Positions 43,151 through 62,447 of a stretch of DNA of 64,000 nucleotides are shown here, one piece after another. The first letter of the stretch is position 1, and each line of letters starts with the position of its first letter. Below the pieces are notes generated by a model. That model had not been told where the DNA came from and ran no database searches. It saw only the letters and a program-made list of their open reading frames with translations. This stretch comes from an uncultured virus (IMG/VR IMGVR_UViG_3300028591_000091). Lineage: Duplodnaviria > Heunggongvirae > Uroviricota > Caudoviricetes. The position numbers were made by a program, and so were the translations under genes. The stretch lies in the IMG/VR virus record IMGVR_UViG_3300028591_000091; one strand, written 5' to 3'.

Positions 43151-44209
43151 CTATTCCTCCCTTAATTTCTTTAAGTCTTGATACAATGACGTCAGTTCTG
43201 CGCCTTCGTAATTATTCTGCTCGGCATACTTATAGAGAATTTCCATCTGCTCATCACTCGGTTTCCAAGTGTATTTTTCTTTGATGGATTTGAGCTTATT
43301 TTTTATTTCTTCAATTTCTTGGAAATCGCTTGATAATTGTGGATAATTATCTTGTTCGTTATCTAATAGACAAAATAATCTTTCAATAATATATTCACCC
43401 TCTCTACTCCAAGACGGCTTCTGCTCAATCTTCTTTAATTTTTTCTTTTCAGTATCCCATTCATACCCCGATTCATACATCTTTTGAAACAAGAGTTCGC
43501 GTTGTTCTTTGGTAGCTGGATGAACATACTTACTATCTACAGTTGCTGTATCTGACATATTAAATTCAATATCGTAAGAACAATACATATATACATCATC
43601 GTTGTCATTTGATTTAAACATAAAGTGAACCGAATCTGTAGTAAGCACATCACCGTCTTTTGCATCTTGGATAGTCCAAAGATGTGAGATATTATCAAAA
43701 GATTTGATACTATATGAACACACCTTATTATCAGCATCAGTAATCGTGTACATTAAAGAGTTTTCCCCTTGATATATTCTGTCTATATGGCACACTATAT
43801 TGTTATCATACACAACCCAATCTCCAACTTTGAATTTAGGTTTAGTACCATCAGATTTCTGTTTTTCAAGGGTTATCCTAACACCTTCGTTAAATCCCCT
43901 CTGATAAGCTTCATCTATTTCTTTTCTATAAGAATCTACATTTCCTGCGAATTCTTTTTCTTCATTAGTAAGAATATCAACCTTCCTTTGTTCATTAAGC
44001 CATTTTTCCATTTGGCATCTTTCATGATTAGTGGAATGCTGTTTTACAAGTTTGATAATAGATAATCTTATTCTTTCATCCTGGCTTTCTTTAAGTATAG
44101 GAAATAATTTTTCAAGAAATTTTTTCTCTTTATCAGTAATTGAAAGATCATAATATCTGTTTCTTGCTAACTCGAATTTTTCTTCGTATTTTTTCTTATA
44201 ATTTTCCAT
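43151..44209 (-). CDS. mosaic phage protein (WTIQDAKDGD family)
   Basis: Modules shared with 14213 and 38477; promoter-like motif upstream. Confidence 0.75.
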   Translation of the reverse strand: MENYKKKYEEKFELARNRYYDLSITDKEKKFLEKLFPILKESQDERIRLSIIKLVKQHSTNHERCQMEKWLNEQRKVDILTNEEKEFAGNVDSYRKEIDEAYQRGFNEGVRITLEKQKSDGTKPKFKVGDWVVYDNNIVCHIDRIYQGENSLMYTITDADNKVCSYSIKSFDNISHLWTIQDAKDGDVLTTDSVHFMFKSNDNDDVYMYCSYDIEFNMSDTATVDSKYVHPATKEQRELLFQKMYESGYEWDTEKKKLKKIEQKPSWSREGEYIIERLFCLLDNEQDNYPQLSSDFQEIEEIKNKLKSIKEKYTWKPSDEQMEILYKYAEQNNYEGAELTSLYQDLKKLREE

Positions 44210-44260
44210 ATAAAATATAGATTATATATATAAGGCTTATAGACTTATTTCCTTATATAT

Positions 44261-45259
44261 ATGAAAATAACAGAATTTAAAGATCTAATTCCGTATATTG
44301 GAAGAGTAGTATGTTGGTGTTTTGGAGAAGAAAAAGAATACCCTTACATAAATAATATTATAACATATATTAAAAAAGTATCAAAAGAACTTAGTATAGA
44401 TTATGATAGTCTTTATAATGACTTAAAATCTAACCTTTCTTACTATTATTCAGATCCACACTTAGGGCCTATGAAATCTCAGAGGATGTTTACTCATGTT
44501 ATAAACGATTCTCAGGTTCTTTGGTATACAGAAGTGGAGTGGAATGAAAAAGATGGGAGTATAATAAGAAAAACATTAAAGAAAGTTGTTGCTCGACTTG
44601 AAATGTCTCTTCTTTATAAAATGCCTTTTAGTGGTAAAATAGAGGGAGAGTTAAAGCCAGCAATAGATTATCGGAGTCCTGATGAATCAGTAAAGATTAA
44701 AGATTCTATCAGATTTTACTCAGCTGCAGATTCCTCAAACTATATTTCCCAAAGTTATGAAATTTGGAAATTTCCTGAGCAGGTGGCAATATTTACAACA
44801 GAAGAGGAAGCAAAAACTTATATAGATTCTCTAAAACCTAAAGAAATTAAGGTGAAGAAAAAGAAGAGCAATGCCTATGAAAATTTCTTAAAGGAAGCTG
44901 AAAAATTAGAACCAGATCAGATACGAGAATTAATAGTAGAGCTTGAAGGGATATATGACAAGAAAATTGATAAACTTAACCTAGATCCTCTCTCAATTGC
45001 CCTTACCTATAAAGGAAGTGCCACAGAAATTGATTCTTATATTATAGGAGGAGAAACAGCGACTAGGGATTGGATAAATAAAAATATGGATCCCCGTCGA
45101 TATGAAACAATCGAATATGAGGATATCTTAGATCAAATCTTAGTAGAATATGATGAGAATATTGAATGGAAAGATATTACAGAGGAAGATCAAGAAGTTA
45201 TTCAAGAGATCGCCGATTATTTGAAAAATGGTTGTAAAGGTTTTAAATGGGATTGGTAA
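44261..45259 (+). CDS. hypothetical protein
   Basis: 332 aa; CCTTATA at 44251. Confidence 0.75.
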   Translation: MKITEFKDLIPYIGRVVCWCFGEEKEYPYINNIITYIKKVSKELSIDYDSLYNDLKSNLSYYYSDPHLGPMKSQRMFTHVINDSQVLWYTEVEWNEKDGSIIRKTLKKVVARLEMSLLYKMPFSGKIEGELKPAIDYRSPDESVKIKDSIRFYSAADSSNYISQSYEIWKFPEQVAIFTTEEEAKTYIDSLKPKEIKVKKKKSNAYENFLKEAEKLEPDQIRELIVELEGIYDKKIDKLNLDPLSIALTYKGSATEIDSYIIGGETATRDWINKNMDPRRYETIEYEDILDQILVEYDENIEWKDITEEDQEVIQEIADYLKNGCKGFKWDW

Positions 45260-45260
45260 T

Positions 45261-46160
45261 ATGACACTTTATGAATTTTTAATGCAAAGCCCAAAGGAAA
45301 TACAGAAGGCATTTAGAGAAAAAGATTGGTTTGACACTTATCATAAAGTTCCATTAGATATTCCAAGTTGGTGTAAATGTTTTGGACTTACACCAGACCC
45401 TAGAATTGTCTACTATGGAAATTGTAGAGATATATATTTCCATATTAAAGAAGAAATTCCTGGCAGTTGGTTTGGGAGTATTGGATATGAACTTAACCTT
45501 AGTGTAACAGGAAGAAATCATAAAATTGTTGTTCACTTTCTAGGATTTGGTGATGATTGTTCTACATCAAATAGCCCAGAAATAGGAAAGGATAAATATG
45601 TTCCCGGTTTTAATCCTAAAAAAGATACTGCATGTTATAATGACCTTGGCTTTGATATAGAACCGGCCATGTTTTCAGATGGTTATAAACAGGACGAGAA
45701 GTATAAAATATATACATGGAAGGATGAAACACCAATTAAAGAATATCATGACAGACTTATAAAAATCTGTAAAGATATTGAACCTTATTTTAAAGAAGTT
45801 TACGAGTCTTTTCATTCAGGATCTTTTAAGAAACTTTGGAAGAAATATTATACCAGAGAACTGAGGAAAGGTGATATGACTAATGCCGGTTTTGGAGTTG
45901 GTCTTAGAGGTTTAGTCTGTATTATGTATTTTGGAGAACATATATTAGGAAGAAAAACTAGTCTAGAGGAAGCTGTTGCATTGTCATCAATAGTTTATGA
46001 TGACATGGGTTGGGTCCCTTGGAGCGTTAGAAAGAAAAATCCTAAAGAAGAGGAGAAACTTATAAATAATATTATGTTCTATTCTAGAGGCGGCTTTTTT
46101 GACGAGGACCTCAAAACATTAACAATAGAAAAATTTGAAAACATGATAAAATTAAAGTAG
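45261..46160 (+). CDS. hypothetical protein
   Basis: ORF 45228-46160; likely ATG at 45261 just after the previous stop. Confidence 0.7.
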   Translation: MTLYEFLMQSPKEIQKAFREKDWFDTYHKVPLDIPSWCKCFGLTPDPRIVYYGNCRDIYFHIKEEIPGSWFGSIGYELNLSVTGRNHKIVVHFLGFGDDCSTSNSPEIGKDKYVPGFNPKKDTACYNDLGFDIEPAMFSDGYKQDEKYKIYTWKDETPIKEYHDRLIKICKDIEPYFKEVYESFHSGSFKKLWKKYYTRELRKGDMTNAGFGVGLRGLVCIMYFGEHILGRKTSLEEAVALSSIVYDDMGWVPWSVRKKNPKEEEKLINNIMFYSRGGFFDEDLKTLTIEKFENMIKLK

Positions 46161-46183
46161 GAGAATAAACTCCTACTTTTTTT
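46155..46183. terminator. bidirectional terminator
   Basis: AAGTAGGAG-CTCCTACTT plus T tract. Confidence 0.6.
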
Positions 46184-46392
46184 AATCCTCACCTCTTTCA
46201 TTATCAGCCCCGTTTGAAAAACCTATATTATAAATCTCTTCAAACATCCTAGCAACCTCTGTCATATTCTTTTTTTTTTAATCCCTAACCTTTTAAGTCT
46301 AGGAACATATACATCATTAAAAAGATCATTAGGACCATTTTCTCCAAAATAATCTCCTGATCCAATGTAAAATCTATCTTTATTATTCATAG

Positions 46393-46812
46393 TTATAAAT
46401 AGATTTCTTTGTCAATACTTAATGATTTTAAAATATGCTGTAATTCATGAACATATAAAAGATCACATACTTTACAATAATTATTATTCCCCGTAGTAAT
46501 AAAGAATGAAAATAAATTATGACAGTTTTTCTTTATCATTATTTTATTATATATGAAATGATCTTTTTGTTGTTTATCAGTAAATCCAAATTTTTCCAAT
46601 ATTTCAGAAGCAAGAGGAATAGGTTTAATATACTTTAAATCTCTTGCTCCATTTGCAAGTGCGACCTTATTTGATGCATATGCAATATCATAAGACATCA
46701 TGGGCTTAATTACTCGGATTATATCTCCTCCAAGTACAGAAAGCACAGTAACTTGAACAGGCTCTCCTTCTGCCAAAATCCAGTCACCTACCATTAAATT
46801 TCTTGCTCTCAT
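46393..46812 (-). CDS. hypothetical phage protein
   Basis: LMVGDW...IKPIPL--EILEK-GF...YVHELQH pattern. Confidence 0.7.
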   Translation of the reverse strand: MRARNLMVGDWILAEGEPVQVTVLSVLGGDIIRVIKPMMSYDIAYASNKVALANGARDLKYIKPIPLASEILEKFGFTDKQQKDHFIYNKIMIKKNCHNLFSFFITTGNNNYCKVCDLLYVHELQHILKSLSIDKEIYL

Positions 46813-47177
46813 CGTAAATATTTTAAATAATAAACAAAACAGTCAAAGAAATCAGAAAAACTAATTATTTTAAGCTTTGAAAATTTATATGTTGTAATAT
46901 TCCATTTTGAATCTACAAAAGATAAATTATCCCTCATCTCCCCCTTCAAACTTAGAAACAACTTTGAAAAAGACCAAGCTGGAAATATATCAATCTCATA
47001 CTCATCAAATCCCACTAAACCTCTCTTTCTTAAAGTGTTAACTGAATCTATCCAATTTATATTGTCAAGCTGATATTCATCTTTTCCCTTCAGCTTCCAA
47101 TGTATCATGTCTGCACTTTCACGGAGTATCCCAAGCTTTATAAGACGCTTTCCTTGCTCAATTGTTGTTGCTATCAT
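46809..47177 (-). CDS. hypothetical protein (TTIEQ/ESADM/PAWS family)
   Basis: Distant paralog of 33098 and 40071. Confidence 0.65.
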   Translation of the reverse strand: MIATTIEQGKRLIKLGILRESADMIHWKLKGKDEYQLDNINWIDSVNTLRKRGLVGFDEYEIDIFPAWSFSKLFLSLKGEMRDNLSFVDSKWNITTYKFSKLKIISFSDFFDCFVYYLKYLR

Positions 47178-47222
47178 ATTTAATTATTTTTTTTATTATA
47201 TCAAACCACCCTTCCATTTGTA

Positions 47223-47561
47223 TCATAATTCGCTATCCTCTATAAGCTTCTGTTTATATTTTTCAAGACTCTTAATATCTCTATTAATTCTTTCTATAAC
47301 ATCTTCTTTGTTGAAATAAACAGCAGCAGCATACATTCCAAAAGAAGTAGTTGTTGATTCCAAAGTATTAGATGCTTGAACAGATTCATAATATGATTTT
47401 GGTTTTGATCCATACCGATCATATCCAATTCGATAATTATAACTCAACGGATGATTAGGATTAAACCCCTCAATATAAGTTACTGTAAATTTTTCAGGTC
47501 CACCTGAAGTATCATACACCCATACAGTATCTCCCACTTTAATGTCTTTAAGTCTCTTCAT
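47223..47561 (-). CDS. hypothetical protein (paralog of 61874)
   Basis: KDIKVGD-V-VYD N-terminus shared. Confidence 0.65.
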   Translation of the reverse strand: MKRLKDIKVGDTVWVYDTSGGPEKFTVTYIEGFNPNHPLSYNYRIGYDRYGSKPKSYYESVQASNTLESTTTSFGMYAAAVYFNKEDVIERINRDIKSLEKYKQKLIEDSEL

Positions 47562-47763
47562 CTATAAGCCCTATTAGTTTCCACACAAAATCAGCTTTAG
47601 CATGACATCTTGCACTTTGAAATTGTCCCTGTATCCACCCCTCTTCCCTCCATGCTCGATCTCCTCTATATCCCTCCTCTCGAAATTGATTGAATACTTT
47701 TTCTAGATCTTCCCTTGAAATCCATATACCATTGTTCTCAACTTTATAATTTTCAAGTTCCAT
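47548..47763 (-). CDS. hypothetical protein
   Basis: 71 aa operon ORF. Confidence 0.55.
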   Translation of the reverse strand: MELENYKVENNGIWISREDLEKVFNQFREEGYRGDRAWREEGWIQGQFQSARCHAKADFVWKLIGLIDEET

Positions 47764-47765
47764 TT

Positions 47766-48194
47766 CTATTTTATTTTATATATCCCCTCCTTAGCCTCTA
47801 ATGCAAGACCTTTTGGAATTAAGCCCAACCAATCTAAGTGATGAGAAAATATAAACTTCATTAGGTCCGACACTTTACTAAACTCCACCCAACTACTATC
47901 CGTCGGTAAAGGTGTATTCTCAATGCAACAGAAATTTGCAAACTCTACTTTCTCCTTTTCTGTCATTGAAGACATAGAGCGAAGAAGTGGTTTAATATCG
48001 AGGTTAAAAGATCTATAGTCTACTCCCTTTACATTAACCAAACTTGATCCCGTATTAGAAATTTCAATCAAGACTCCAATAAGATTTTCATAAGTCTTCT
48101 CTTTAGAATTCGGAACCCTGATCTCAACTTTTACTCCATAAAATAATCTGGGACATAAATCTTTTAATAATAAATTTTTCTCTTCTTGTATCAT
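47766..48194 (-). CDS. MTQEEK/KPYLRPMSSM family protein
   Basis: Paralog of 30306. Confidence 0.75.
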   Translation of the reverse strand: MIQEEKNLLLKDLCPRLFYGVKVEIRVPNSKEKTYENLIGVLIEISNTGSSLVNVKGVDYRSFNLDIKPLLRSMSSMTEKEKVEFANFCCIENTPLPTDSSWVEFSKVSDLMKFIFSHHLDWLGLIPKGLALEAKEGIYKIK

Positions 48195-48461
48195 ATTAAT
48201 TTTTTATATATTATATAAGGCAATAAAGAGGGGACTTTAATTCCCCTCACTTTTATAATATAGTAGTTTCAAAAATCATTATTTAGACAATAATACTCCA
48301 AAAGGTATATAAGTTTGGCCTTTTTTAACGTTGTCTCTAATAACACAACTTCCATTCTTACACACCACTAATGCTTTGCTATAATCTTTATCTGCCACAG
48401 ACCACTTAAGCTCATTCCATCTTTATAACTTTCAAAATTAAATTCTCTAAATTTCATATTT

Positions 48462-48743
48462 TTATTCAATATAACCCTCGTCTAATATTACTTGAGGTTT
48501 GTCCACATTAGCCGTCAGGTTAGTATATTCTGTCCAATGTTCGATAGGATAGGTTTTACTTATGATTTTTGCAGCTTGCTCTATATAATCAACATACCTA
48601 CCTTTCCTATCTAAGAACAAAAAATGGACAAATGCATCTTTATCGTGAGCAGCAATAGAAAAAGCTTCATTCCTGCTATTTGCTGCTACTAGAATAATTC
48701 CACCTTCCCAACTTCCTTGTCTAATGCATCCAAAAACTTTCAT
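48462..48743 (-). CDS. hypothetical protein
   Basis: 93 aa. Confidence 0.6.
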   Translation of the reverse strand: MKVFGCIRQGSWEGGIILVAANSRNEAFSIAAHDKDAFVHFLFLDRKGRYVDYIEQAAKIISKTYPIEHWTEYTNLTANVDKPQVILDEGYIE

Positions 48744-49210
48744 TTATCTTCGGGATAATCAATGTAGTATATCTTCAGATCTTTGAAACGACATGCAAAA
48801 TTGTTTTTATTCTCCTCTATAAATTTTGTAAGCTCATCCTTAGTCATGTCGGAGAGGTTAGTCCCAATAAAATAAAGACCATCCGAAAGATAAGCTTCAT
48901 ACTCCCCATCATCCGTATAAAAATTACCTTCTCTAAATTCTTCGATGGTTAAGAATTCTGGGCGTTCATAAGTATTTCCCCAATCATAACGTTTAACCTT
49001 ATCCAAACATTTATATAGAGGTTTAGAATTGATAATAGTTTTTTCGATAGGCATGTAATCCTCTACCTGTTCATCTTCATCACCATCTTCTTCTTTTTCC
49101 ATAATGACAGAGGAACCTATAATGCTCACTAATCTCCAACCATCAGATCCCAATTCATTTACCCTACTTTCATTAAATTCAAGTTTCTTATATTTAAATT
49201 TCTTTTCCAT
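48740..49210 (-). CDS. hypothetical protein (DUF4177-like N-terminus)
   Basis: FKYK...NELGSDGWRLVSI pattern. Confidence 0.6.
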   Translation of the reverse strand: MEKKFKYKKLEFNESRVNELGSDGWRLVSIIGSSVIMEKEEDGDEDEQVEDYMPIEKTIINSKPLYKCLDKVKRYDWGNTYERPEFLTIEEFREGNFYTDDGEYEAYLSDGLYFIGTNLSDMTKDELTKFIEENKNNFACRFKDLKIYYIDYPEDK

Positions 49211-49380
49211 ACATTAATAAGGAATTCGCGCATATTTTAGGTTGGGGAAAAGAAGTCGTGTGTAAGGAAAAGGCGTACGCAAAAATAATACACGACTTAA
49301 TCAAAACCCCAACGATCTTTCATGCGCGGATAAAGAAGAGAAGATATACTAGAAAACTAATATACCTTCTCCCTATTTAT

Positions 49381-50022
49381 TTACATGATGCTTTCGAGTT
49401 CTTTCTTCAAGTTTATAATCCTGAAGAATCTATCCACACATTTCCAAGAGGTCAACCATCTTTGTTCTCTATCCTCTGGTTCATTAGATGTTCCATAAGA
49501 TATAAACAGGTCTTCTATTCCTACTACCGAATCTGCTAATATCTCTTTCAATGTTTCATTCCCAAGATATTCCTTAGCCTTCCCCGGTTCTAACTCCGCC
49601 AAACTAAGATGGGGAATGTAGGAAGAATATTCAGACTTAACCTCAAATTTTATACTCAGTCCTTTATTGATCAGAGACAGTACCTTAAAAAGTGGTGTCC
49701 CTTTTCGAAGTTTCAGGATCAAATAGTCAGTATCATTTTCAAAAGATCCAAGTTCGAAAAGGTCTAAGACGCTATAGAAATTATCTCCCTTGATCATTCC
49801 TTCAAGCCAATCCCAATCCTCTTTTCCTAAGATCTCCTTAATATCCCCTAACAATCCTTCACATTCTATCTTCTTTCCTTGTGAGTATAGTAAAGTAATG
49901 TGTGAGTCAAGTTCCACTCCAGTATCCTTAAGATCCTCCTCTTTGAAGACACAACCAAGACTAACAGGAGTGGTCAAGTTCATCGCCAGCATTAAACAGC
50001 TATTAATATCTTTCTTTTCCAT
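49381..50022 (-). CDS. 2H phosphoesterase (T4 gp57B/Acb1-like)
   Basis: Two HxT/S motifs: SHITLLYS and YIPHLSLA. Confidence 0.7.
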   Translation of the reverse strand: MEKKDINSCLMLAMNLTTPVSLGCVFKEEDLKDTGVELDSHITLLYSQGKKIECEGLLGDIKEILGKEDWDWLEGMIKGDNFYSVLDLFELGSFENDTDYLILKLRKGTPLFKVLSLINKGLSIKFEVKSEYSSYIPHLSLAELEPGKAKEYLGNETLKEILADSVVGIEDLFISYGTSNEPEDREQRWLTSWKCVDRFFRIINLKKELESIM

Positions 50023-53000
50023 TATCCTTTACCTTGATTTTTTAACCTAAACTTTGTCTTCATAGTCTTCAGATCATTCTTTAGACTAGAACCTCCTTGA
50101 TTGAATCCCTCTTCGTCACTGATCGTAAGTCCGAGAGCTAACAGATTATTAAGGAACAACTGATTATCCTCCTTTGCTGTATCTTTTCTTGCACCGGTGA
50201 TAAATTCCCGTGCGTTTCTAGATAACAGTGCGGACAACTCATCTTCACCTATCTTCTGTCCAGTCAATCTATACCTACCTTTACCTAAGATCGGCTCATT
50301 ACGCTTAGAACTGATATCTACTCCTGCCATACTTGTCGTCACTTTAGCTGAGTAACTGGGGATATGATATAATTCCTCTAAGTTCATCCATCCGCACTGT
50401 AATTTTTTCTGCACGGGGACAAACTTACCGGTCATTCCACTCCTTACTTTCTCATACTCTTCGGGACTTAAAACTTCTTTCAATTCCCCAAGATCAGTAA
50501 CTTCAGATTCTGGCATTAATATCTCAGACTGACTTTCTACTCCAAGTTCATCCATCCATTTCTCAACAATCTCCGGAGTAAAATCACTAAAGCAACCTAC
50601 CTCAAGATAATATACCTCCTCAATCGGCTTAGACTCATGCAACTTTATAAATTCTTCTGTGCTTAAATCTGTATAACGGCCAGGATAATATTTCTCAATT
50701 AGCGGCTTTATTTTCTTTTGCCCAGATTTTGTTTTCTTATACTCCTCTACTAAATCATATATTCTATGAACACAATTACCTAAGGATTGCTCCATCAATA
50801 CACCAGCTATCTTACGATTTCGATTATCCCGTTATTTATCATAACAGGTCAGACTATATCATTCCATTTAACAGGATCGATACACTTAGTCTTTGAATTT
50901 AGAACAATATATCCTAAACTGCTGATCCTCATTTTCTTTGAGTTCCAGCATTACTATCGATTTTCTTTACTCTCTCGAATAAAGCGACAAATCATTATAG
51001 TTTATCGTTGAATAGGGATTCATCACACATTCGCACCTGTACTGCTTTCCTGTATTCTTATCAACCATTATAGGCATCAATTCATCAGGCTTTACTACAG
51101 ATACCACACCCTTACCTCCATAGTTATTAGTAATTTTTGAACCGACCATTAAAGTAGTTCTCTTTATGAGTCTAATTCTGACCGTGTATACAACCTTATA
51201 TTCATCTCTATTCATATTAATAGGACGAAGACGATCAGCTGCTACATACTCCGGGAACTTATCATAAATTATCTTTCGGTCTGCATTCTTTTCATACTCT
51301 TCGGCTACTTCTTTTGAGGTGCGCGAAAAACGATAATCTGGTGTTTTTACTGATTTAGGTATTTTCGGCTTAGTTTGCTCCTGAATCATTACATCAGAAA
51401 CATAAGCCTCATCAATGTTATTCGGAACTTTCAGGTAATCTTCTGTAGTAAAATCTGTAATATTCTTTCCAGAAACTTCACCAAAAATTCCACCCAACTT
51501 CTCAGCTAGGACTTTATTAACATCATCCAATCTGTTAGTCTTATATACACCAATTACATTATCTCCTGACTTAACCCTAGTTCCTATAGGCGCAATCCAT
51601 TTAAGAGCTGAGGTGTTTTTTATATTAAGCTGAAGATCAATAATGCTATAATGTACACACCTATTAGCAAATGATTCTGATACTACAACGGCATCTTCAT
51701 TTACATAACCAAAATATGCATGGAACAAAACTAATGCATTAAGTCCACTCTTATAGGTATCAGTAGTTAAGTTAGTGGCTCCTGAAATTATATCACCCCT
51801 CTTTAACTTCTGACCTACCTTAACTTTCGGCTCAGTATATACACAAACATCATTCTGTGATTGTATAGCTGTGCGCCTAGGATGATTTATAATATCACCG
51901 TCAGGCAATTCTATAACAATGTTGGATTCTGTTATTTCTTTGACTTTTCCTTTATCATAATTAAATTTCTCATTCAATACATTATCTTTGAGCTCCTCCT
52001 TATGCCCAGTTCCTACAAGAGGCCTTTGAGCATTAACTAGAGGAATTGCTTGTTTTAACCAAATATTCTGTTATTTATCACAACAGTTTAGACTATATCA
52101 TCCATGTTTTACCTATAGTCGTTGATCTCAAAATATAAATTCTGAGTTGCTGATTCAAGATTAAACTCATTCCAGCAGTTAGTAAAATTTTCATAGTTTT
52201 CTTTTCCTATGGCACTTTATAAACAAAATGCTAGTTCCCATTGATATACGTACCGAGTCTGTATAATTAATGAAAGGAATTCGTCTAGTAGTTTCAGAAA
52301 GACGATAATCTGGTTCAAGATCTATTAAATCTGTCTCTTCAACCTTTACCATCTTTCTTTTCATTCTATATTTAACTTCAACCATTCCACTAGGGTCTGG
52401 CTTAAGTCTTCGGTTTTTATAATCTACAAATTCTGATGCTACAACTTTTGAATTAAGATAATCGATGTAAAATAACGATACTCTCTGAAATTCTTTATTA
52501 TAAGCACTATACAAAACGCCATCGTCTGTAATTTTTGTGCAAACAGTTAGGCTATTTTGAATGTTTGTATTGTTATTTCCTTATTCTTATTTTTTCAAAT
52601 AAGAGTAGTACTATATCATCCTAATTTAGGTTTCACATATAGTCGTTGAATATAAAATCAGTTTATATTAATTACGTTTTGTTTTTAAACCCTTTTCTAT
52701 TAGGTATTTTACGTAATTCATACTAAATCTATTTTATACTGCTGATTGGGTATTACCTTCCCAGCAATTAAGTGAAATTATTCTCGACAAATAATTTATC
52801 GGTGTCATTTATACTCTATTTTTCGATAGAGATTAGAACTATATCTTTTCTTTTGTACATAGTCGTTGAATCTAGAGAATATAACCCTAGACTGCTGGTT
52901 TTCCAAAAGGACATTCCAGCAATTCTCAAAATTCTATCTCTTTTTTACAGAGAACAGACTAACCTATGTAATCTGCAAAATCAATTATGTCTGCAAATGT

Positions 53001-53930
53001 GGGATTAAAAGCCACCGTTTCAGGCACAGTAATTTTATTTCCCAAGCTTTCTAAGTTTGCAGCATTAATTCCCGGTGGTACTTGTATTCCAGTATCTCCT
53101 TTGGAATCAGAACTTCCTTTAAAAAACCTAGCTGACATTGTAGAAATGATCGTAAGTTGGTCCGCCAGTTTTCCATACTTTACAAAATAACTAGAGATGT
53201 GTCTACGAGCGCTATTATAAGTGCGTCCGTTGTTTGATCTAAAGATATGTTTCATAAAGCCTGTTGGTACACTTTCTATCGACTTATCAATAATCAAGTC
53301 CTTTAAGCGATCATCTCCAAAAGCTAAGCAATCATTAATCAGACGCGTAGTAATGTATTCGGGTTTATAATCAATATCTAACTTAACTTGGAATTTCTTT
53401 GTTTGATATTCCGATAATTTAAGTAGTTCTTTGATTTCACCCTCAGCATCATCTATCTCTTCATATTTTAGCTTAACTTCTTTATCTATCAGTCTTAAGT
53501 TTGGATCATTTCTTTTAATTTTCAAGATTCGACGATTAATATCATATCTTCTATCGTAGTCAAAATTTATGATATAATCACCAGAGCCAGACATTCTTAT
53601 TCGACAATCATAATCAGAGCTTAGGCTGTTTGTTGCAATTCGATAAGCTCCCTCAATGATGAAAACCCCTTCAACTTCTTTGGGAACTTCGAATTCACTG
53701 TATTTGATTTCGTCTGGTTTATCGGTTGTTGTATATTCTATTCTAACCTTGAATGTAGCAGTTAATCCATTCTCTACATAATAAGAGGCTGGTTGATCTG
53801 CTTCTTCAACGATAGAATGTGTCAGTGTAGCTATCTTAACCTTAGGATTAAAAATATCTGCACTACCAACAAACCTTTCTACCATTATCTTTGCTCCTCG
53901 ATTCTTGAAATATTCGTTAAAGCTACTCAT
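50022..53930 (-). CDS. rpoB: phage DNA-directed RNA polymerase beta subunit, 5 exons: 53930-52971, 52805-52798, 52578-52228, 52059-51004, 50820-50022 (3174 nt, ~1057 aa)
   Basis: Spliced junctions restore beta motifs: DTPINNNTNIQNSL (cf. ETPEGPNIGLINSL), MGTSMLKQAIPL (cf. MGANMQRQAVP), NPYSTINR; also GYVNEDA, GSKITNNYGGKGVV, GQKIGEDE. Exon sum is a multiple of 3. Confidence 0.88.
50821..51003 (-). ncRNA. group I intron, beta intron 4 (183 nt)
   Basis: P UGCUGGAA, Q AUCAGCAG, R UCAAAGACUA, S GAUAUAGUCU; exon ends in U, intron ends in G; restores TI|NRK. Confidence 0.85.
52060..52227 (-). ncRNA. group I intron, beta intron 3 (168 nt)
   Basis: P, Q, R and S present; restores SM|LKQ. Confidence 0.85.
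52579..52797 (-). ncRNA. group I intron, beta intron 2 (219 nt)
   Basis: P, Q, R present; S variant UAGUACU; restores TPI|NNN. Confidence 0.8.
52806..52970 (-). ncRNA. group I intron, beta intron 1 (165 nt)
   Basis: P, Q, R present; S variant UAGUUCU; restores FAD|TP. Confidence 0.8.
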
Positions 53931-53931
53931 T

Positions 53932-54288
53932 TTATACTAATGCTTTTATATTTAGCTGTTTATACTCACAATCTACCGAGTTAAAGAATTCCTCAATCTC
54001 ACCTTTAATCTGATCTTTTAAATCCCGAGCTGCAACATATTCGCCCATAGGAAGACCTGCAGTGGATCGAAAGAAAGCTGTATAAGTAACTAGATAATTG
54101 TAAGTATCTTTCAATTGATATAATACCAGCTTTACAGAAAATAATTCGTATTTTTGTGGGATTATATCAGCCAATCTGTCATATAAGTTGTCCCTAGCCT
54201 GAATTATACTAGGGTCTTGACTGTCTAATACATTATAAGGTATTTCATAAGACAGAGCTATGTTATAATATGTATTATCTCCACCCAT
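53932..54288 (-). CDS. hypothetical protein within RNAP operon
   Basis: 118 aa, 1 bp from the beta start. Confidence 0.7.
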   Translation of the reverse strand: MGGDNTYYNIALSYEIPYNVLDSQDPSIIQARDNLYDRLADIIPQKYELFSVKLVLYQLKDTYNYLVTYTAFFRSTAGLPMGEYVAARDLKDQIKGEIEEFFNSVDCEYKQLNIKALV

Positions 54289-54293
54289 AGTAT

Positions 54294-54476
54294 TTAAAAA
54301 TCAGCATCCATCATATTTCCTCCAGCTTTCTTTGTCTTAGCTGGTTTTTCTTTTTCTTCAGCCACATCCGTTTTAGGTGGGGTAGCTGTATTACAAACTA
54401 CCTCACCATCTTTACGAATGACTATGCTGATTGATAACTCCTTTTCAAAATTAGGAACATCAAATTCAATCTTCAT
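54294..54476 (-). CDS. small hypothetical protein within RNAP operon
   Basis: 60 aa between beta-prime and 53932. Confidence 0.6.
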   Translation of the reverse strand: MKIEFDVPNFEKELSISIVIRKDGEVVCNTATPPKTDVAEEKEKPAKTKKAGGNMMDADF

Positions 54477-54493
54477 AATCTTTTGCCTTTTCT

Positions 54494-57400
54494 TTATTTG
54501 TTTTTAGTATCATCAAGTTGGTTATTCAAGAGAAGGCCAAGAATTACTCCAGTCATAACATCATTTCCAAGATTTACTTCTCCTCGTAATGCCTTATTTA
54601 CTACTCTTGAACTATAACCATAACTTAGAACAGTATAGAACGATTTCTTTGAAAGTACTGATGTCTGAGTTCCCTGATATTCGATATCCTCAATCTGTGC
54701 TGTCTTAGGATTATACGTTATATTTGTTAATCCTGTGAACAACAACTCAATGATATCTTCCTGTGTAGAGCTCAAGCTTGATACTCCACTCTTTGCGAAA
54801 CCTCCATCAGTAAGGGTATAAAACTGCTTTCGGAAGATAAGATATATGTCGTTCAGTCTATTTTTACCTAGTTCAGAAATCACGTTGCTCATATTAACAA
54901 CTCCTGAACAGATTCTATCAAACTTCCTAATTTGGGTCCCTTCTGAATAGAAATACATGCACTCCGGATTGTACTGATATGTTCTATCCCCGATTTTTAC
55001 TTCAATATCTCCATTCTTGTTCTCCACATATCTGATAACCCCATCATCATATGCATAACAGTCCGAAATCAAGATGTTATCCTTTTCAAAATATCTAAGT
55101 CCTGCAGATTTTCTAGCTCGCATAAGATCGATCATAGAATTAAGTTTGCTAATTGGACTTGATGTATTATAAGCACAACATACGATCTCACCCTTTTCAA
55201 ATTTATCTTTTGCTAATGTTACCAAGTTATCTGGACGAGGATACTTAAGCTCTCCTCCTCCTCTAACCTTAAGAAATATAAATTTTCCTTCTTCTCTGAA
55301 AGTGCATGTCTTAGGAGCATATAAATATCCATCCTTGGACAAAACCCTTTCATGGCCCAAACCCAAATATATTCCTATATTTAGATAGACTATATCTTAT
55401 TTAACTATAAATTAGATATTATTAGTCGTTGAACTAGTTTTTAAAATACTAGCTGCTGATTAACCTTTTGGTACTTCCAGCAATTTTATCTATTTTTGCA
55501 CGGCAGTCATTTATTTTAGAAGGCTTTAATTTACCGTGCTTCAGTCCCAGTGCAGCTTGAGTCGTTCCTTCAGTTAATGATCGAGCGAAAGACAAACCTA
55601 TGGCAGCCCCAGGAGTAAAATCTTTAAAGAATTTATTTATAAGGTCGGGAGTAATGACGTTAAGGTCTCCCGTTCTTTTTGATACAATAGATCTCACTAA
55701 AACCAAATCATCCTCGTCTGGTTTCCCTTTAAAATCTGGGTAAACTTTTCCGGAAGGAGCAGTTCTACCACCAGCTTTATAACGAGGGATTAGGATTCCA
55801 GGATTCTCAGCATCTTCTCCATCTTGATAAACATAATTATTCAAGAGGAATGAAATTTGTCGCGTTAATGATCCCGAATTTGGCCACTTCTCTAGTCAAC
55901 GCGCAGAAAACTAGAGATGTTAATGTTAGTCATATTTCTATAACTATTAGACTATATCACCTAAGTACAGTGTCTAGTCGTTGCTCTTATCACTCTTTAC
56001 TTCCATCTCTGTTGCGGTCTTCTCTAATCCTATCTGGTGTTTTTCATTAAGATCTCTAAGTATCTCTCCCAAACCAGTTAAGAATGCACCGACAACAGTA
56101 ATAATTTTAATAATTGTTTTTGGATTCATCATATAGGTAATAAGTTGCTGATTAAAATTGTTTTTCTTCCAGCAATTAAACTGTATTTTAACAGGCGCAC
56201 CGTTACAATTCGGGCTTAACCTTTCACGCCTGAAACTTTGATACTCTGTAAGCTCCTATTTTCAATGCTGTGGAATATCATATCTTTTTCTGAAAGACCA
56301 GTTAGAAGGGAACCTTTTGTTATTACGGGGACCTCTGAAACTCCGCTTACTATCAATTGAGGCATATTGAGGGCGGATATACTAGATATCTTTACTCGAC
56401 CTGCACGATTAAGCTCGTTTTTAAGATCTTCAGAAAATGAAGCTTCAATCTCTCTTTCATATTGCTCATATTTCTCTGTCAAAAGAACCAATTTTTGTCG
56501 ATCCGTTAGGTCAGGAGAGTCAGCAATATTACGAATTTCCTGATAAGTTTTTGTATTAGTGGGAGTGTAAAGCGTAGGAAAATCAAACGTTACTACACCC
56601 GCAAGAGATACTACTCGGAGACAGAATTTTTGAAGTTCTAGTCGTTTTTCAATTCCATCATCAGGATAATCATATAAGAATGCACTAAGCTTCATTGCGG
56701 ATTTAGCATCAAATCGTGTATACTTATCTTTGGTGAAATTAAAATCATCCATATTTCTTCCCAGAATTTTTGAAATTCTAATTTTACCATAAGTTGTTAC
56801 CTCTGATTGATACTTTAATCCATCGCCAAAATCATAAGTAAATACAATAGGCGTTCCAATTTTTAAAATTTTATTTACTTCAACATCAAGAACCAATTTC
56901 TTATAATCATCATAAAAGTATCTTGGCTCTTTAAGCTCCTCTGGATCTTCCGGTGTCCATTCAGAAGCTACTGCTAACCCATTAAGTACTTCATGATTTA
57001 TCGTGGCAATCGGTTCGCGATTTTTCTTGTAATAAGCTACATATCTGGGGCTCATCTTACGAAAAGTGTCCTCAGAAACCTCGCTTGGTACTAATTGACT
57101 ATTAGTTAAGAAATTTCTTACTTAACATAGACTGTATCATCTCGCTTTATTTACGCGGTTTTGTACATCAGTCGTTGAAAAGAAATCATTATAGATTCCT
57201 TCTGCTGATCTGAATTTAATTTTCATTTCCAGCAGTACTCAAAATTTTCTTCTACATAACATAGAAGCTACTCTTTTCAAATAGCTACAGTATCCGATAT
57301 ATCTAATAATCTCTTATTAGTCTAGCATATATCTTCATCCCTAATAAGGGATGGTGAGCACTCTAGGGAAAATTATTTCATTTCCTATGCGTTACGCTGA

Positions 57401-60400
57401 TAACCATATAAATTACCAGCTCGGTATTAGCTATAAAACTTTCACCGAATTTGCTCACTAATAATTTGAAACATTACTGCTTCAAACGGCAATATTGTTT
57501 ACCATCAAAATCCTTTATGTTCAACCAGGCACACTACTTCTGGCCCGCCTTTTGGCAGCTATACATCTCTGTATAGAACAGACTATATCTTCATCTCTAT
57601 TAAAAGAGAGTCTGGCTTTTCCACTCGTGATTTGAGTGTACTCCCATTTGGGATAGTCGTTGAGGTTGTAAAATATCAAATAGTCAGTTTGATATTCATT
57701 AATTATCTTCGTTATAAAAAGACCACCCGTGATCCTTCTTTACGACACCATTTACCCAGTTACTCATAGTGGTTTTGCTTACGTTTGCTGCTTCTGCAGC
57801 TTCCTTTATACAACCATATATAGTACCGTCAGGGGAAATAACTTTCTTTGCGTTAACTTTATCTCCTCCATGTTTTTGTTTAGATTTCATATACTCTCTA
57901 TAGGCAGGATCTAAATATTTTTTCTTATGAGTCTCTGACTGTTTTCGTAAATATTCTGGATCTTTAGCAAGCCTTTTTGCAATCTCTGATCGTCTTTTTC
58001 TATACTCAGGATCATTTACATCTAATTTACTAAAATTTTCTGCAGCTCTTTTTCTAAAGCTTTCAGGGTCTTTTTTAACACTCTCTTTAGCAAGTTCTGA
58101 CATTTTTTTCTTAGTTTCCTCTGTATGTCTTTTTCCTTTATGAGATTCAGAAAGTTTCTTTTTGTGTTCTTCTGATTTTGGAACACCTTTCCTAATTTTT
58201 GATAGCTTTTGTTTATGATCTTCTGATAGTTTTCTGCCTTTTCTATCTTTAGAAGCCCTCTCTTTTTGTTCTTGGGTCCAAAGACGACCAAAATTTGGAT
58301 TATTTTCTCCTTTTAATAACTCCGACATTTTCTTTCTATATTCATCTGATTGGACTTTAGCAAGAAATCTTTCACGGACTTTACTTGCAGTTCTAGAAGA
58401 AAAATGCTTTGTTACTGTAGAATTCCTTTCTATTTGGTTTCGTCTATTACTATTGCTATTGTGCCCATTAAACATGAGATTTGCAGCAGTTAATAACCCA
58501 TCTGAGTCGGGATATACTTCCAATATAACCAAATGAGCCATTAAATGATATCTAATAGGCATTTTTACGAGATTTTCCTTAATATCTGTACCACCTAATG
58601 TTTTTGGAAAAATATGATGTACCTCGTAGTATACAGTTGACAATTCTTCCTCTGTCATTGATTGGCATCGTTTTATCAATCTAATATATAATCTTAAGTA
58701 TTTACATCTATGATTATATTCAATTTCTGTGAGACCCTCCTTTTTTATTTCAGGGAGGTGATAAGTCTCATAAATTAAATTAATTTCATCCATATAATTT
58801 TAATTTTAAGCTTTAGTTTGTTTCTTTACAACCTGCTGATTGTCTCTATCCTATGAATTTTTAGGGTTGGTGACTAAATCCAACATTAACCTCCTATCAT
58901 AAGCCTATCAAGAGTTTCCAGCATTTAACCAGATTTTATAACACCTATTTTGTTAAGCGTTAAGAGGAGAACAATGAAGAATCTTTTACATCGCTGTAAT
59001 TTTATAATTGATTCTTCAGACTATACCTTTCTCTCTTTGAGATTCTGTATATAGTCGTTGGGCTTAAGACATTATAATCTTAAGTTGCTGATCTGGATTT
59101 CAAAATATCCGTTCCAGCATTTAGCAGAATTTTACAGCAACCTGTATTTTTGATCGCTGGTGGAAATCCGATTGCGTATTCGTCCCACAATTTTATTTTT
59201 ACGCAGAATAGACTATATTCCATTTATCCTTTGATTTATCACCTAAGGATAGACTATATTTTCTGTTGTGCCTTCTATAGTCGTTGAACCTAAGTTATTT
59301 TAAACCTAGATTGCTGATTTGAGTTTAACCTCATTCCAGCAGTTTAAGCATTTTACTTGCACAAATTATAGGTTATGCAAACTGGGCTGGCGATTCACCA
59401 AAACCATTCGTCCTTCTGCATATTCTTTGAAGAGTTTCTGAGTCTCCTCGTTCATTGCCTCCTCGCGTGTAGCTTTCTTCGCTTCTTTCTCAGTAAAGTT
59501 AAGTTTTTCCATGAGATGTTTGATGAAATCCTCTCTAAGCATCTCGTATGCGATCGACGTCGGAATTTTTAGTTCATCAATTTTAATATCCATGGCAGGC
59601 ACAATAGGACATCTAGCTGAATTTTTTGTTCGTACAGCATAGAGTTCTCGTGCCAAATTTTCTTTACTAGTATTAAGAAGGTTGGTTGCTTGTTTGATAA
59701 CTGCATTTAAGAACGCACGGAGAAGCGCAGTATATCGAACTCTTTCTCCGGGAGTTGAAAGTTTACTCATTACGGTTTCATAGTTTAAGCCGTCGTTAAC
59801 TTTCTTATCCTCTACACAGCACAGCCAAATAATAGCGCTATACAAGGTAGAAAGTTTGTGAGTGCCCATCATTTTCTTACCATCTTTATAGGCAAGTGTA
59901 AAGGGTCTCATAGCGGCGGGCAAAACTAGATAGTAATGATTAATTAGTTTTCTAAATTCTGTTAAGCTCTCCGGAAAATGCTTACTAATAATTTCGAGTA
60001 ACCCTTCATAAGAACATTTTTTCTCATCTGTAATAACTTCTGAGATAACTAGTTCTTTCTTTTTAGGGTTATAATCAAATTGGCAAGTATCGAACACTTT
60101 AATTCCCAGTTTCTTTGATCCTCTACCTGCTGAATATCCTAATCTACTAAGGTTTTTGTCATTAAAATTCATAACGATCTTAGTATCTTTGAATATCTCA
60201 TCGAATTTCTGTTTAAAGATTTCGAATCGTAGAGCATTAAGATAATAGAAAGGTAGTTCAATTCTTGCAAATCTTCTTAGTGCTGCATCTTTTGTGTAAA
60301 CCTTAGTACCGCAATAGGGACAAGGTTGTGGGTCCGGAGAGGCTTGACGAATTTTTCCACACACACATCTATCAACCATCGGAGAACCAAAAATTTCAGT

Positions 60401-60544
60401 ATCATAAACTCCTCCTGTAATTGGTTGGAGTCTATCGAATTTAAGGTTTAGGTCTCCGTGTGAATAGAGTACATGATCTTTTCCATCAGACCTCGAATAA
60501 TCTAGAATGTCATCATCTGTTAATAGCTCTAATGATATTGCCAT
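54494..60544 (-). CDS. rpoC: phage DNA-directed RNA polymerase beta-prime subunit, 8 exons: 60544-59375, 59220-59153, 58974-58956, 57512-57501, 57294-57281, 57098-56226, 55884-55533, 55357-54494 (3372 nt, ~1123 aa)
   Basis: Zn finger CVCG...CPYCG; spliced NRQPSLH EYSLFCVKIKLWDEYAIGFPPAI CSPLNA DFDG DTVAI QLVP; bridge helix RSLQSIKVSGVPNSGSLTRQ; trigger loop TEGTTQAALGLKHGG. Confidence 0.9.
55358..55532 (-). ncRNA. group I intron, beta-prime intron 7 (175 nt)
   Basis: P1 GCACGGU/GCCGUGC with U-G; P, Q, R, S; P9 with GGAA tetraloop; restores KHG|GH. Confidence 0.85.
55885..56225 (-). ncRNA. group I intron, beta-prime intron 6 (341 nt)
   Basis: P1 CAGGCGU/GCGCCUG; P, Q, R, S; restores GV|PNSG. 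Confidence 0.85.
55974..56132 (-). CDS. 52-aa intron-internal ORF (not an endonuclease)
   Basis: MMNPKTIIKIITVVGAFLTGLGEILRDL...KSND*, between Q and R; stop overlaps R. Confidence 0.35.
   Translation of the reverse strand: MMNPKTIIKIITVVGAFLTGLGEILRDLNEKHQIGLEKTATEMEVKSDKSND
57099..57280 (-). ncRNA. group I intron, beta-prime intron 5 (182 nt)
   Basis: P1 AGCUAU/GUAGCU; P, Q; R CGACUG and S CAGUCU covary; restores AI|QLVP. Confidence 0.85.
57295..57500 (-). ncRNA. group I intron, beta-prime intron 4 (206 nt, different IB-like core)
   Basis: P AAUUCGGUGAA, Q AAUACCGAG, R GUAACGCAUA, S AAGAUAUAUGCU, P3 GUGAGC/GCUCAC; restores DFDG|D. Confidence 0.8.
57513..58955 (-). mobile_element. group I intron, beta-prime intron 3 (1443 nt) carrying HNH homing endonuclease
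   Basis: P near 58916, Q near 58834, R near 57654, S near 57580; restores NA|DFDG. Confidence 0.88.
57699..58793 (-). CDS. intron-encoded HNH homing endonuclease with NUMOD3 repeats and C-terminal HTH
   Basis: EVHHIFPKTLGGTD--ENLV...H--AH; repeated SEEHKKKLS/TEETKKKMS; IYGCIKEAAEA. Confidence 0.88.
   Translation of the reverse strand: MDEINLIYETYHLPEIKKEGLTEIEYNHRCKYLRLYIRLIKRCQSMTEEELSTVYYEVHHIFPKTLGGTDIKENLVKMPIRYHLMAHLVILEVYPDSDGLLTAANLMFNGHNSNSNRRNQIERNSTVTKHFSSRTASKVRERFLAKVQSDEYRKKMSELLKGENNPNFGRLWTQEQKERASKDRKGRKLSEDHKQKLSKIRKGVPKSEEHKKKLSESHKGKRHTEETKKKMSELAKESVKKDPESFRKRAAENFSKLDVNDPEYRKRRSEIAKRLAKDPEYLRKQSETHKKKYLDPAYREYMKSKQKHGGDKVNAKKVISPDGTIYGCIKEAAEAANVSKTTMSNWVNGVVKKDHGWSFYNEDN
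58975..59152 (-). ncRNA. group I intron, beta-prime intron 2 (178 nt; 3-prime end probably A at 58975, alternative G at 58972)
   Basis: P1 CAGCGAU/GUUGCUG; P, Q, R, S; restores AI|CSPLNA. Confidence 0.8.
59221..59374 (-). ncRNA. group I intron, beta-prime intron 1 (154 nt)
   Basis: P1 UUGCAU/GUGCAA; P3 UGCUU/AGGCA; P, Q, R, S; restores SLH|EYS. Confidence 0.85.
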
Positions 60545-60556
60545 AATTGTTTAGTT

Positions 60557-61615
60557 TTAAATGCTTTTCCAAATGATTTTCTTAGCCAGGTCGGAATCTT
60601 GTGCATTTTCAGCGATCCATTTTTTCCATACCTGTTTTACGTCTGCTATAGCTTCACTTCGTGTCTTATCCTTCAGTTTTTCATAGATACCTGCTTCTGG
60701 ATCTTGATAAACTTCGATAAGGTCTGAGATTGTGTCCTGGGTGATAGTTTTGCTAGTATTCGTAAACTTAGATCTAAACTCTCTATAAACTTGTACATCA
60801 TCATAGGTAAGTTCTAGATCTGAATAGTCTGAGACAATACGAATTTCAGCAGGCTCTCTTTCAAACCAGGAGAGTCCCATCTTTCTCACTCGGTCGGCTA
60901 CTTTTTGTCTTCCCAACTCTTCATACTTTCTTGCCAGAGCCTCAACGATATCATACTTTGTTCTCATTATAATTTGGAACGCGTTATTGATTTGATCGTC
61001 GTACTCTTTTGGCATGGTAGGACAGTTTAGGATTAGGTCATAAAGTCCAGACGAGAACAAAAATATAATCAGAGCTGGAATTTGTCTAAGTTTTCTACGG
61101 CGTGAGAATACGGAGTCCTTAGATAGATCGCGATTGGCCAAATAATAAACGAACTCTGCGATTAGGTTTCTAGCCTCCTCTACAAATTCCTTATTAAAGC
61201 TACTCGTGTCATCTCCAAGAAAGTCCTCATCTACGTCTTGGCCACTTAGAGGTTCATCTGGGGTATAAACAGAGTTAGTGACGCGATTCTTTCCTGTTTT
61301 ACCCAAGATAGATCGTACCACATCATTAATAGTTTTCTGGCTTGAATGTTGGGGATTTGCAGAAACTAAGACTGTAAGCAAATCTAACATCGTATTATCA
61401 TCTTGTCTTTTACCGATAGAAACGATGTCATCATAGCCTAGCAGGAACTTAAGTTCTTGTTCCCCTAATTTTCCACCATACTCTTCCTCTATTAAACCCT
61501 CATCTTCCTCTTCTTCTGATCCAACATCTTCATCCACGTCTTCATCTGGGGAATTTTGAAAATATCCTTCCTCTTCCAATTCCTCATTGTCGTCGATTAA
61601 ATATTCGTCATCCAT
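60557..61615 (-). CDS. hypothetical protein with acidic N-terminus, first gene of RNAP operon
   Basis: 352 aa, 12 bp upstream of beta-prime. Confidence 0.75.
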   Translation of the reverse strand: MDDEYLIDDNEELEEEGYFQNSPDEDVDEDVGSEEEEDEGLIEEEYGGKLGEQELKFLLGYDDIVSIGKRQDDNTMLDLLTVLVSANPQHSSQKTINDVVRSILGKTGKNRVTNSVYTPDEPLSGQDVDEDFLGDDTSSFNKEFVEEARNLIAEFVYYLANRDLSKDSVFSRRRKLRQIPALIIFLFSSGLYDLILNCPTMPKEYDDQINNAFQIIMRTKYDIVEALARKYEELGRQKVADRVRKMGLSWFEREPAEIRIVSDYSDLELTYDDVQVYREFRSKFTNTSKTITQDTISDLIEVYQDPEAGIYEKLKDKTRSEAIADVKQVWKKWIAENAQDSDLAKKIIWKSI

Positions 61616-61783
61616 TTTACTTATATAGATTTTTAAATTATAAGGCAGATTTTATTCTACCCATCTTACACCGATAAGGGAGTGAGACCGTTTCGAGCGC
61701 GTTTTAGACATGTACAGAGTATAAATGAAGGCCTGAAATCCTTATAAGTGTGTTTATTAGAAGTTTGTTATTTAAATTATTTG

Positions 61784-61821
61784 GGGAATGCCGTTTGTGA
61801 AAATAGCATTCTCTTTTTTTT
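61784..61821 (+). terminator. intrinsic terminator
   Basis: GAATGCCGTTT-GTG-AAAATAGCATTC plus T tract. Confidence 0.55.
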
Positions 61822-61873
61822 GAAAAGAAAAGAAGAGATTAGATTTTATTTTCCAATCTCTTTTTTTTTATTT

Positions 61874-62218: not shown

Positions 62219-62447
62219 CTTTGTAGCTCCATTTTATCCAACCATAGATATTAATAATGACATAGAAGATAAACATAATAAATTGTCCCATATTGAAGGG
62301 TCCTATTATGTTATACAAAATCCAAGCAAAGTTACCTATAGTCCATATTACAAATGCATATTTATTTTTCTTGATCACATAATAATTTCCTATGATGGCG
62401 CAAGAACAGCCTATAGCACTTAGGAAATCAAGAAAGGTTATCTCCAT
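62205..62447 (-). CDS. small PnuC-like three-helix membrane protein
   Basis: Hydrophobic; AFVIW--GN--W and INIYGWIKW resemble the PnuC C-terminal repeat; adjacent to nadE. Confidence 0.55.
   Translation of the reverse strand: MEITFLDFLSAIGCSCAIIGNYYVIKKNKYAFVIWTIGNFAWILYNIIGPFNMGQFIMFIFYVIINIYGWIKWSYKDENI

Follow-up and report, generated by a model that had tools for sequence, protein, structure and literature searches.

An 8-nt exon between two adjacent group I introns in the RNA polymerase beta gene of an uncultured rumen phage

The sequence of 64,000 nucleotides (nt) available for the uncultured virus IMGVR_UViG_3300028591_000091 (Caudoviricetes), referred to below as the window, carries on its minus strand a gene for the RNA polymerase beta subunit that is interrupted by four introns (A to D), with an exon of only 8 nt between introns A and B. 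A preliminary description of this DNA had placed such an exon between two back-to-back introns, with the coordinates and letters reported here, and our results agree with it, both flanks being separate group I introns and the 8 nt being retained in RNA. Very probably, the insertions of two independent mobile group I introns lie 8 base pairs (bp) apart in the TP motif of the beta gene of a large rumen phage, and the micro-exon left between them is kept in the message. Each of the two introns would be a ribozyme complete in itself and equipped with a guide: that of intron A would select the 5′ splice site through six pairs with the end of exon 1, and that of intron B through four pairs with the final four micro-exon bases, while six further pairs would hold exon 3. 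Both introns would be removed in vivo, with the 8 bases staying in the mRNA and the D-T-P-I reading frame being restored.

All features of the beta gene, and of the beta′ gene upstream of it, lie on the minus strand and their coordinates are given here in the direction of the genes. Exon 1 of beta (53930–52971) starts with an ATG at 53930 and ends in GCAGAT, with U as its final base; its limits follow from the open reading frame (ORF), the spliced frame and an RNA contig (X5, see below) that resumes at 52971. It is followed by intron A (52970–52806, 165 nt), a group I intron with neither an ORF nor a P8 hairpin, and by the micro-exon ACACCGAT (52805–52798), which contains the codons ACA (T) and CCG (P) and the AT of ATA (I). 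Intron B (52797–52579, 219 nt), also of group I, was delimited by a U at position −1, a final G, a score of 86.8 bits with a model of the intron family, and an end-to-end alignment with the introns of two relatives (L002 and L005). Exon 3 (52578–52228) begins with AAATAAC, as supported by the frame and by contig X5, which covers 52347–52578 with one mismatch. The remainder of the gene comprises intron C (52227–52060, 168 nt, group I; absent from relatives L003 and L008), exon 4 (52059–51004), intron D (51003–50821, 183 nt, group I; a paralogue of B with the same target) and exon 5 with the stop codon (50820–50022). The gene was identified as that of the RNA polymerase beta subunit because exon 4 matches the Pfam family RNA_pol_Rpb2_6 (E value 2.1e-15); Pfam gave no family for beta exons 1, 3 and 5 or for three beta′ exons, the only other match being that of beta′ exon 1 to Rpb1_2.

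Scripted joining of the five exons produced a single open frame of 1057 amino acids (aa), reading IIDFAD-TP-INNNTNIQNSL at the micro-exon. We compared it with relatives recovered from a scan of viral contigs (one) and from a scan of metagenome contigs (nine), among which eight distinct loci reach the site, L001 and L009 being the same. Identity of exon 1 to that of the relatives was 57–93 %. In the comparison with the uninterrupted 1058-aa beta of L003, 960 of the 1058 alignment columns are identical, with a single gap column, and the residues at all four junctions are the same in both proteins. The L003 protein (91 % identical) has ADTPINNNTNLQNSL at this point, which phmmer aligned without gaps to ETPEGANIGLITSL, residues 442–455 of Thermus aquaticus beta; over a slightly longer stretch of the same query, adtpinnntnlqnslt was aligned, also gapless, to vETPEGANIGLITSLA (residues 441–456, chain 1ynj_C). 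The micro-exon site lies in the most conserved motif of the beta gene, where it corresponds to the TP of bacterial ETPEG. Its contribution, said in the preliminary description to be T-P-(I), amounts to T, P and two thirds of I. Skipping it would indeed disrupt the gene, as had been claimed: joining exon 1 straight to exon 3 causes a frameshift, giving DFADK and then an immediate stop.

Region 50001–60000 is represented in sheep-gut and bovine-gut sequencing runs, four of them RNA libraries, and we compared three RNA runs (X2, X5 and X6) and the best DNA run (X1). The junction proposed at the outset as the one to look for in RNA, exon 1 followed by the 8 nt and exon 3, was found in a 684-nt contig (depth 11.7) of X5, a bovine gut metatranscriptome. 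This contig covers 52347–52578, continues with ATCGGTGT, the plus-strand form of ACACCGAT, and resumes with 52971–53414, so that positions 52578 and 52971 are joined with exactly the 8 letters between them and with 232 and 444 nt on either side. No contig of DNA run X1 had this joint, and that run was colinear with the window, with no mismatch, over 52342–52874. Of 676 aligned bases, 11 are different in the X5 contig and the window; with the caveat that this is an assembled contig from a strain 98.4 % identical, it documents precise excision and exon ligation. The skipped form, with exon 1 joined directly to exon 3, was not seen in the contigs of the RNA runs compared. Joints of other introns of the gene were seen as well: the joint left by intron D (50817 to 51001, with an ambiguity of 3) was present in RNA runs X2 and X5 and not in DNA run X1, and X5 has a joint across intron C (52049 to 52234) with 16 diverged letters that encode the same residues. 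The contigs listed for X2 are identical to the window; one of 921 nt has intron D removed with 0 mismatches, and others retain introns A and H.

The eight distinct loci that reach the site include four without introns, one with intron B only, two with both introns and one with an intron at the A site. In the four intron-less alleles the D-T-P-I codons are contiguous, with GAT ACT CCC ATC in L003 (91 % protein identity), ACT CCA ATT in L008 (93 %), ACA CCT ATT in L004 (82 %) and ACT CCA ATC in L001 (57 %). Locus L002 (93 %) has intron B alone, situated after ACTCCGAT and 948 nt long, with an ORF of 256 aa for an HNH protein. Loci L005 and L010 have both introns, flanking the same ACACCGAT, and L006 (59 %) has an intron at the A site, its contig stopping 22 bases later. 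Intron A is therefore absent from L001, L002, L003, L004 and L008 and present in L005 and L010. Silent positions follow the introns: the state CCG AT|A occurs in 4/4 alleles with intron B and in 0/4 of the distinct intron-less alleles, and the state ACA in 3/3 alleles with intron A and in 1/5 of the others. Over the two stretches covered by the X5 contig, the recovered loci, with or without introns, have 75–88 % DNA identity to the window. One of the relatives is located on a 183-kb contig of the viral collection.

These alleles also bear on whether the whole interval might be a single composite intron, a twintron or tandem module removed as a unit with other boundaries, in which case the 8 letters would not be an exon. 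Tandem group I modules spliced as one unit, as well as an 18-nt case, are described in fungi and their mitochondria (PMC12308204), and an alternative join of GATTACAT to AAATAAC would also be in frame in the window. The RNA contig, nevertheless, has exactly the 8 letters and not the alternative join; T-P is present at the site in the relatives; and L002 has intron B alone at the same position. We consider a composite intron extremely improbable. Assignment to the twintron class was rejected, as the 8 letters are retained in RNA and code for conserved residues, a refutation that would fail only if the contigs were misassembled.

Introns A to D contain one copy each of the core motifs TGCTGG..CAGCA and CAACGACTA..ATAGT, and hence A and B each have their own core; such core sequence elements go by the names P, Q, R and S. 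One 11-mer, TCAACGACTAT, is found as an exact copy five times in the 64 kb, always on the minus strand and within 52115–59287. All 11 introns that we delimited in the window have a U before the 5′ splice site, a final G and a P1 helix of 4–8 bp closed by a U.G pair. Introns A and B both have a P3 helix (TTTTG/CAAAA in A and TTTCAC/GTGAAA in B). Folding of 12 introns of the family with RNAalifold yielded 21 pairs that form P4, P6 and P7, with changes on both sides in six of them. A covariance model built from this alignment had nine matches in the window, located between 50821 and 59376 and confined to the minus strand, including A and B, full-length and side by side; eight of these matches, A and B among them, are training sequences, and intron F (29 bits) is outside the training set. 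The model found nothing in loci L001, L003, L004, L006 and L008 (ten of the 11 source sequences were searched, L009 being the same as L001). These features suggest that introns A and B splice by the self-splicing chemistry of group I ribozymes.

The guide of intron A, GUCUGU (52959–52954), can pair with the end of exon 1, GCAGAU, in a P1 of 6 bp that includes the U.G pair. In L006 the exon ends in GCGGAU and faces a guide GUCCG, a compensatory change in one pair with respect to the window. The guide of intron B, UUAUUUGUCG (52794–52785), combines GUCG, complementary to the CGAU of the micro-exon (P1, 4 bp), with UUAUUU, complementary to the start of exon 3, AAAUAA (P10, 6 bp). Against the ligated exons it thus forms 10 pairs without interruption, the one at the splice site being U.G, and a P1 extension adds 3 bp; the corresponding guides in L002, L005 and L010 form 11 such pairs. 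Introns B and D share their guide core and their target (CGAU followed by AAAU), which indicates that they are paralogues. Clearly, then, the micro-exon serves intron B as its 5′ exon. Only two of its positions are silent (base 3, A, and base 6, G), and both are in the state that pairs with the guides, which fits co-conversion during homing, selection for splicing, or both. We also observed, in the region 52772–52797 (minus strand), that the first 23 bases of intron B allow a 9-bp A/U hairpin whose loop contains the guide GUCG(A). This hairpin is in competition with P1, P10 and P3, and L002, L005 and L010 have retained a form of it with 7 bp.

Several points weigh against two spliced introns around a retained micro-exon. 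Intron A matches the Rfam group I family RF00028 over the full model length with 48.8 bits (E value 1.5e-11 in a search of 431 bases), just under the gathering threshold of 50, and intron B reaches 12.6 bits, far under that threshold; the L005 copies of both score 48.4 and 16.5 bits. An Rfam scan of 44000–64000 at E ≤ 1 returned no group I match, such matches appearing only in short searches, for example of the 431 bases alone. Intron A has no residues at 59 model positions of the P8 region, between P3′ and P7′; as judged by eye, introns C and J also lack P8 and intron B has one of 4 bp (CCUA..UAGG). P1 of intron B, taken alone, is at chance level with its 4 bp. The preliminary description had the micro-exon acting both as P10 of the first ribozyme and as P1 of the next, and only the second role, through CGAU as part of the 10 pairs, stands; the P10 of intron A consists of 3 pairs (ACC with GGU) offset by 2 bases from the splice site, a number expected by chance in a search that spanned 40 registers, and was rejected as evidence of a genuine helix. 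Introns E, F and I likewise have a P10 of only 2–3 bp. The allele counts given above are not phylogenetically independent. Moreover, intron B and exon 3 share their initial AAAT, and the mRNA by itself is equally compatible with an exon of 12 nt; we chose the 8-nt boundary because only this solution puts a U before the 5′ splice site and a G as the last base of the intron.

The transcript evidence consists of assembled contigs and not of reads, from RNA libraries that may contain DNA, and it shows neither rates nor RNA ends. In X5 intron A is uncovered, so that the intron content of this strain, which is not identical to the window, is unseen. In X2, positions 52005–52672 have no cover and consequently no contig bridges 52578 and 52971. 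The joint between 52578 and 52971 also occurs in RNA run X6, at a depth of 4.2 and with a shorter side of 93 nt, the 8 letters there being ACGCCTAT on the gene strand. These letters still encode T-P-I, but their silent changes would cost P1 of intron B one pair, for which reason the contig may belong to a strain without introns. Its letters being different, it was set aside as ambiguous and not used as a second proof of splicing.

In a rival explanation, the joined contigs derive from intron-less strains, as mRNA or contaminating DNA; splicing of the A/B pair would then be unproven, and weak expression or a defect of the interrupted allele would be conceivable. Four distinct intron-less loci do exist, intron A is without cover in X5, and the letters of X6 are unlike those of the window. 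Against this, the X5 contig is 98.4 % identical to the window, whereas the intron-less alleles are 75–85 % identical in the same stretch of exon 1 and 80–82 % in exon 3. The contig also has CCG AT|A and ACA, the states associated with the introns. The window-identical X2 has other introns of the family spliced out beside contigs that bear them, with those joints missing from the DNA run, and the interrupted gene retains an intact frame of 1057 aa. An origin in intron-less strains is thus improbable, and the identity and the intron-associated silent states of the X5 contig led us to take it as spliced mRNA of the window's lineage.

It had also been claimed that so short an exon, having to act for intron A as 3′ exon (P10) and for intron B as 5′ exon (P1), forces an order of splicing, which would mean that the two ribozymes are not independent. 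This was not supported, the pairings being identical whichever intron leaves first. P1 of B is confined to bases 5–8 of the exon and the first three bases of B itself, with no reach into the tail of A or exon 1, and intron A sees the same downstream letters before and after removal of B because intron B and exon 3 both start with AAAU. The putative P10 of A (exon bases 3–5) and P1 of B (bases 5–8) have only base 5 in common, which would favour an order, as would the distance of 8 nt between the reaction centers, at which simultaneous docking of both cores is sterically doubtful; that P10, however, is the 3-bp, chance-level helix described above, and similarly short ones are found in E, F and I. 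In placozoan mitochondrial cox1, where a single-base micro-exon lies between two group IB introns, both half-spliced transcripts are reported (Osigus et al., 2017; PMC5436844), and a short exon therefore need not impose an order. A hint of an order comes from record 11 of X2, a contig of 665 nt with 0 mismatches that extends from 53462, spans intron A completely and stops precisely at 52798, where the micro-exon ends and the 5′ splice site of B lies. This end fits cleavage at the 5′ splice site of B with A still present; a branch in the assembly graph would be expected 4 bases past 52798, since B and exon 3 share AAAT. Record 11 may be either a cleavage intermediate or an assembly accident, and a single contig end from one study is a weak hint at best, as contigs cannot reveal RNA ends. 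We infer that there is no obligatory order and regard one as unlikely.

Introns A and B look alike, and the exons before them, exon 1 and the micro-exon, both have GAU as their end. Slightly less likely still is a broader version in which the ribozymes are coupled via the shared exon, with a preferred order, the 5′ splice site of B being cleaved first as the end of record 11 hints, that guards against skipping, and in which the P8-less introns A, C and J (154–168 nt) are among the smallest natural splicing group I introns. If this were true, introns without P8 may depend on a neighbor or on a protein. As an observation in its own right, introns A, C and J (165, 168 and 154 nt; 52970–52806, 52227–52060 and 59374–59221) lack P8, yet their joints are present in RNA contigs, and they could rank with the smallest functional group I introns.

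With respect to mobility, the HNH ORF in the L002 copy of intron B matches PF01844 (E value 1.2e-4; 22.6 bits, with a cut-off of 21.4). Intron B of the window aligns end to end with this 948-nt intron and retains both ends of the HNH gene, namely its first codons and its tail, indicating that it is a deletion derivative of an intron that carried the HNH gene. In L005, intron B is 157 nt long and a clean hairpin takes the place of the HNH region. Intron B therefore has the two features of a mobile intron, an endonuclease gene in one copy and alleles with and without the intron, and homing by the HNH enzyme would account for its spread. For intron A there are also alleles with and without the intron, and an endonuclease gene was present in no copy found.

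The beta′ gene contains seven further introns, after whose removal its frame is open, so that the beta and beta′ genes together have 11 group I introns. Short exons, delimited by the same rules as in beta, are also present there, with lengths of 68 nt (59220–59153), 16 nt (58971–58956), 12 nt (57512–57501) and 14 nt (57294–57281). Five introns, J, I, H, K and G (57099–59374, minus strand), are concentrated within about 110 coding bases around NADFDGD; intron J (59374–59221) is 154 nt long. In X2, a contig of the identical strain connects the 12-nt exon, the 14-nt exon and the exon whose first base is 57098. Intron H carries a homing endonuclease gene (phrog_655, E value 4.6e-33; NUMOD3). Intron K (57500–57295, 206 nt) matches RF00028 with 45.6 bits and has neither the TGCTGG nor the CAACGACTA motif of the family; it represents a second, different group I lineage in the same gene. 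The downstream part of beta′ contains introns F (56225–55885, 341 nt) and E (55532–55358), and an open frame of 93 codons lies in the P6 region of intron F (55974–56255, minus strand). A further joint, between 57492 and 59397, skips 1904 bases with 8 other letters in between and occurs in both DNA run X1 and RNA run X5, with 30 nt on the shorter side; it may reflect a strain with a different set of introns or an artefact due to repeats. Micro-exons recur in this clade: in its region 2596–2967, locus L005 has an additional intron after AACCCT and an 11-nt exon, TATTCAACGAT (ca. 2771–2781), ahead of intron D. The window lacks this additional intron next to intron D.

Micro-exons between group I introns are already in print for organelles, down to 1 nt, as in the placozoan study (PMC5436844). 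As in placozoan cox1, the window has two separate group I introns around an exon too short to fold, which stays in the mRNA, where it restores a conserved residue, and the origin proposed there, an intron landing beside an existing one, is likewise applicable. The placozoan case differs in concerning an animal organelle, a 1-nt exon and IB introns, compared with a phage gene, an 8-nt exon, introns of 165 and 219 nt and alleles with none, one or both of them; its half-spliced forms were seen, whereas the window is known here from contigs. A parallel in genes is Bacillus phage AR9 (KU878088), in whose virion RNA polymerase g189 (N-terminal part of beta) is joined from six pieces and g145 (N-terminal part of beta′) from three. 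Rfam gives six RF00028 matches in g189, with one intron situated after the codons for S-T-P-D-S-D, the equivalent motif. AR9 shares with the window jumbo-phage genes for a multisubunit RNA polymerase that are split by several group I introns, of which some carry a homing endonuclease gene; AR9 introns are, in contrast, larger and over the Rfam threshold (69–102 bits for four of them), and its beta is encoded by two genes instead of one. We found no sequence similarity to the introns of the window in the phage collection.

Jug (jumbo gut) and crAss-like phages have many group I introns of about 206 nt, with a mean of 18.5 per genome, that cut essential genes, and splicing of 37 out of 76 of them is backed by metatranscriptome reads (PMC12880540). 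The genes concerned there (terL, nrdD and DNA polymerase) are different from those of the window, and the word exon does not occur in the main text of that article, which thus contains no mention of micro-exons. In Staphylococcus phage Twort, a gene with three group I introns shows exon skipping (Landthaler and Shub, 1999, as summarized in PMC3073962). As in Twort, several similar group I introns share one phage gene in the window; Twort has transcripts lacking an exon, whereas no such form is seen in the contigs examined here. Our literature searches, which did not extend to the original Twort paper, found no description of phage group I introns with a micro-exon between them. In the phage collection, neither a near DNA match to the beta gene nor a tblastn match to exon 1 was found, and the intron pair had no match by blastn; exon 4 matched only RNA polymerase beta genes with 22–31 % identity (from Staphylococcus, Listeria and other phages, and some bacterial records), the best of which is annotated as uninterrupted.

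The 8-nt exon is real, though extreme among the examples of a habit already known from phage introns, and its special value lies in the combination of RNA evidence and an allelic series. It shows the extent of intron invasion that an essential phage gene tolerates while still working, the shortest exons (8, 12, 14 and 16 nt) being located at the most conserved motifs of the RNA polymerase. The series of alleles (none, B only, A and B), together with public RNA data, offers a ready system to study how neighboring ribozymes fold without interfering, how skipping is avoided and what length of exon a guide needs. There is also a practical side, as gene callers and Rfam at its default settings miss such introns, with the result that polymerases are annotated as fragments.

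Elsewhere in the window, 13 of the 17 large ORFs compared with PHROGs had no family. The ORFs include one similar to integrases (1105–2115), one similar to nicotinamide phosphoribosyltransferases (20232–21422) and one similar to NAD synthetases (62431–63345).

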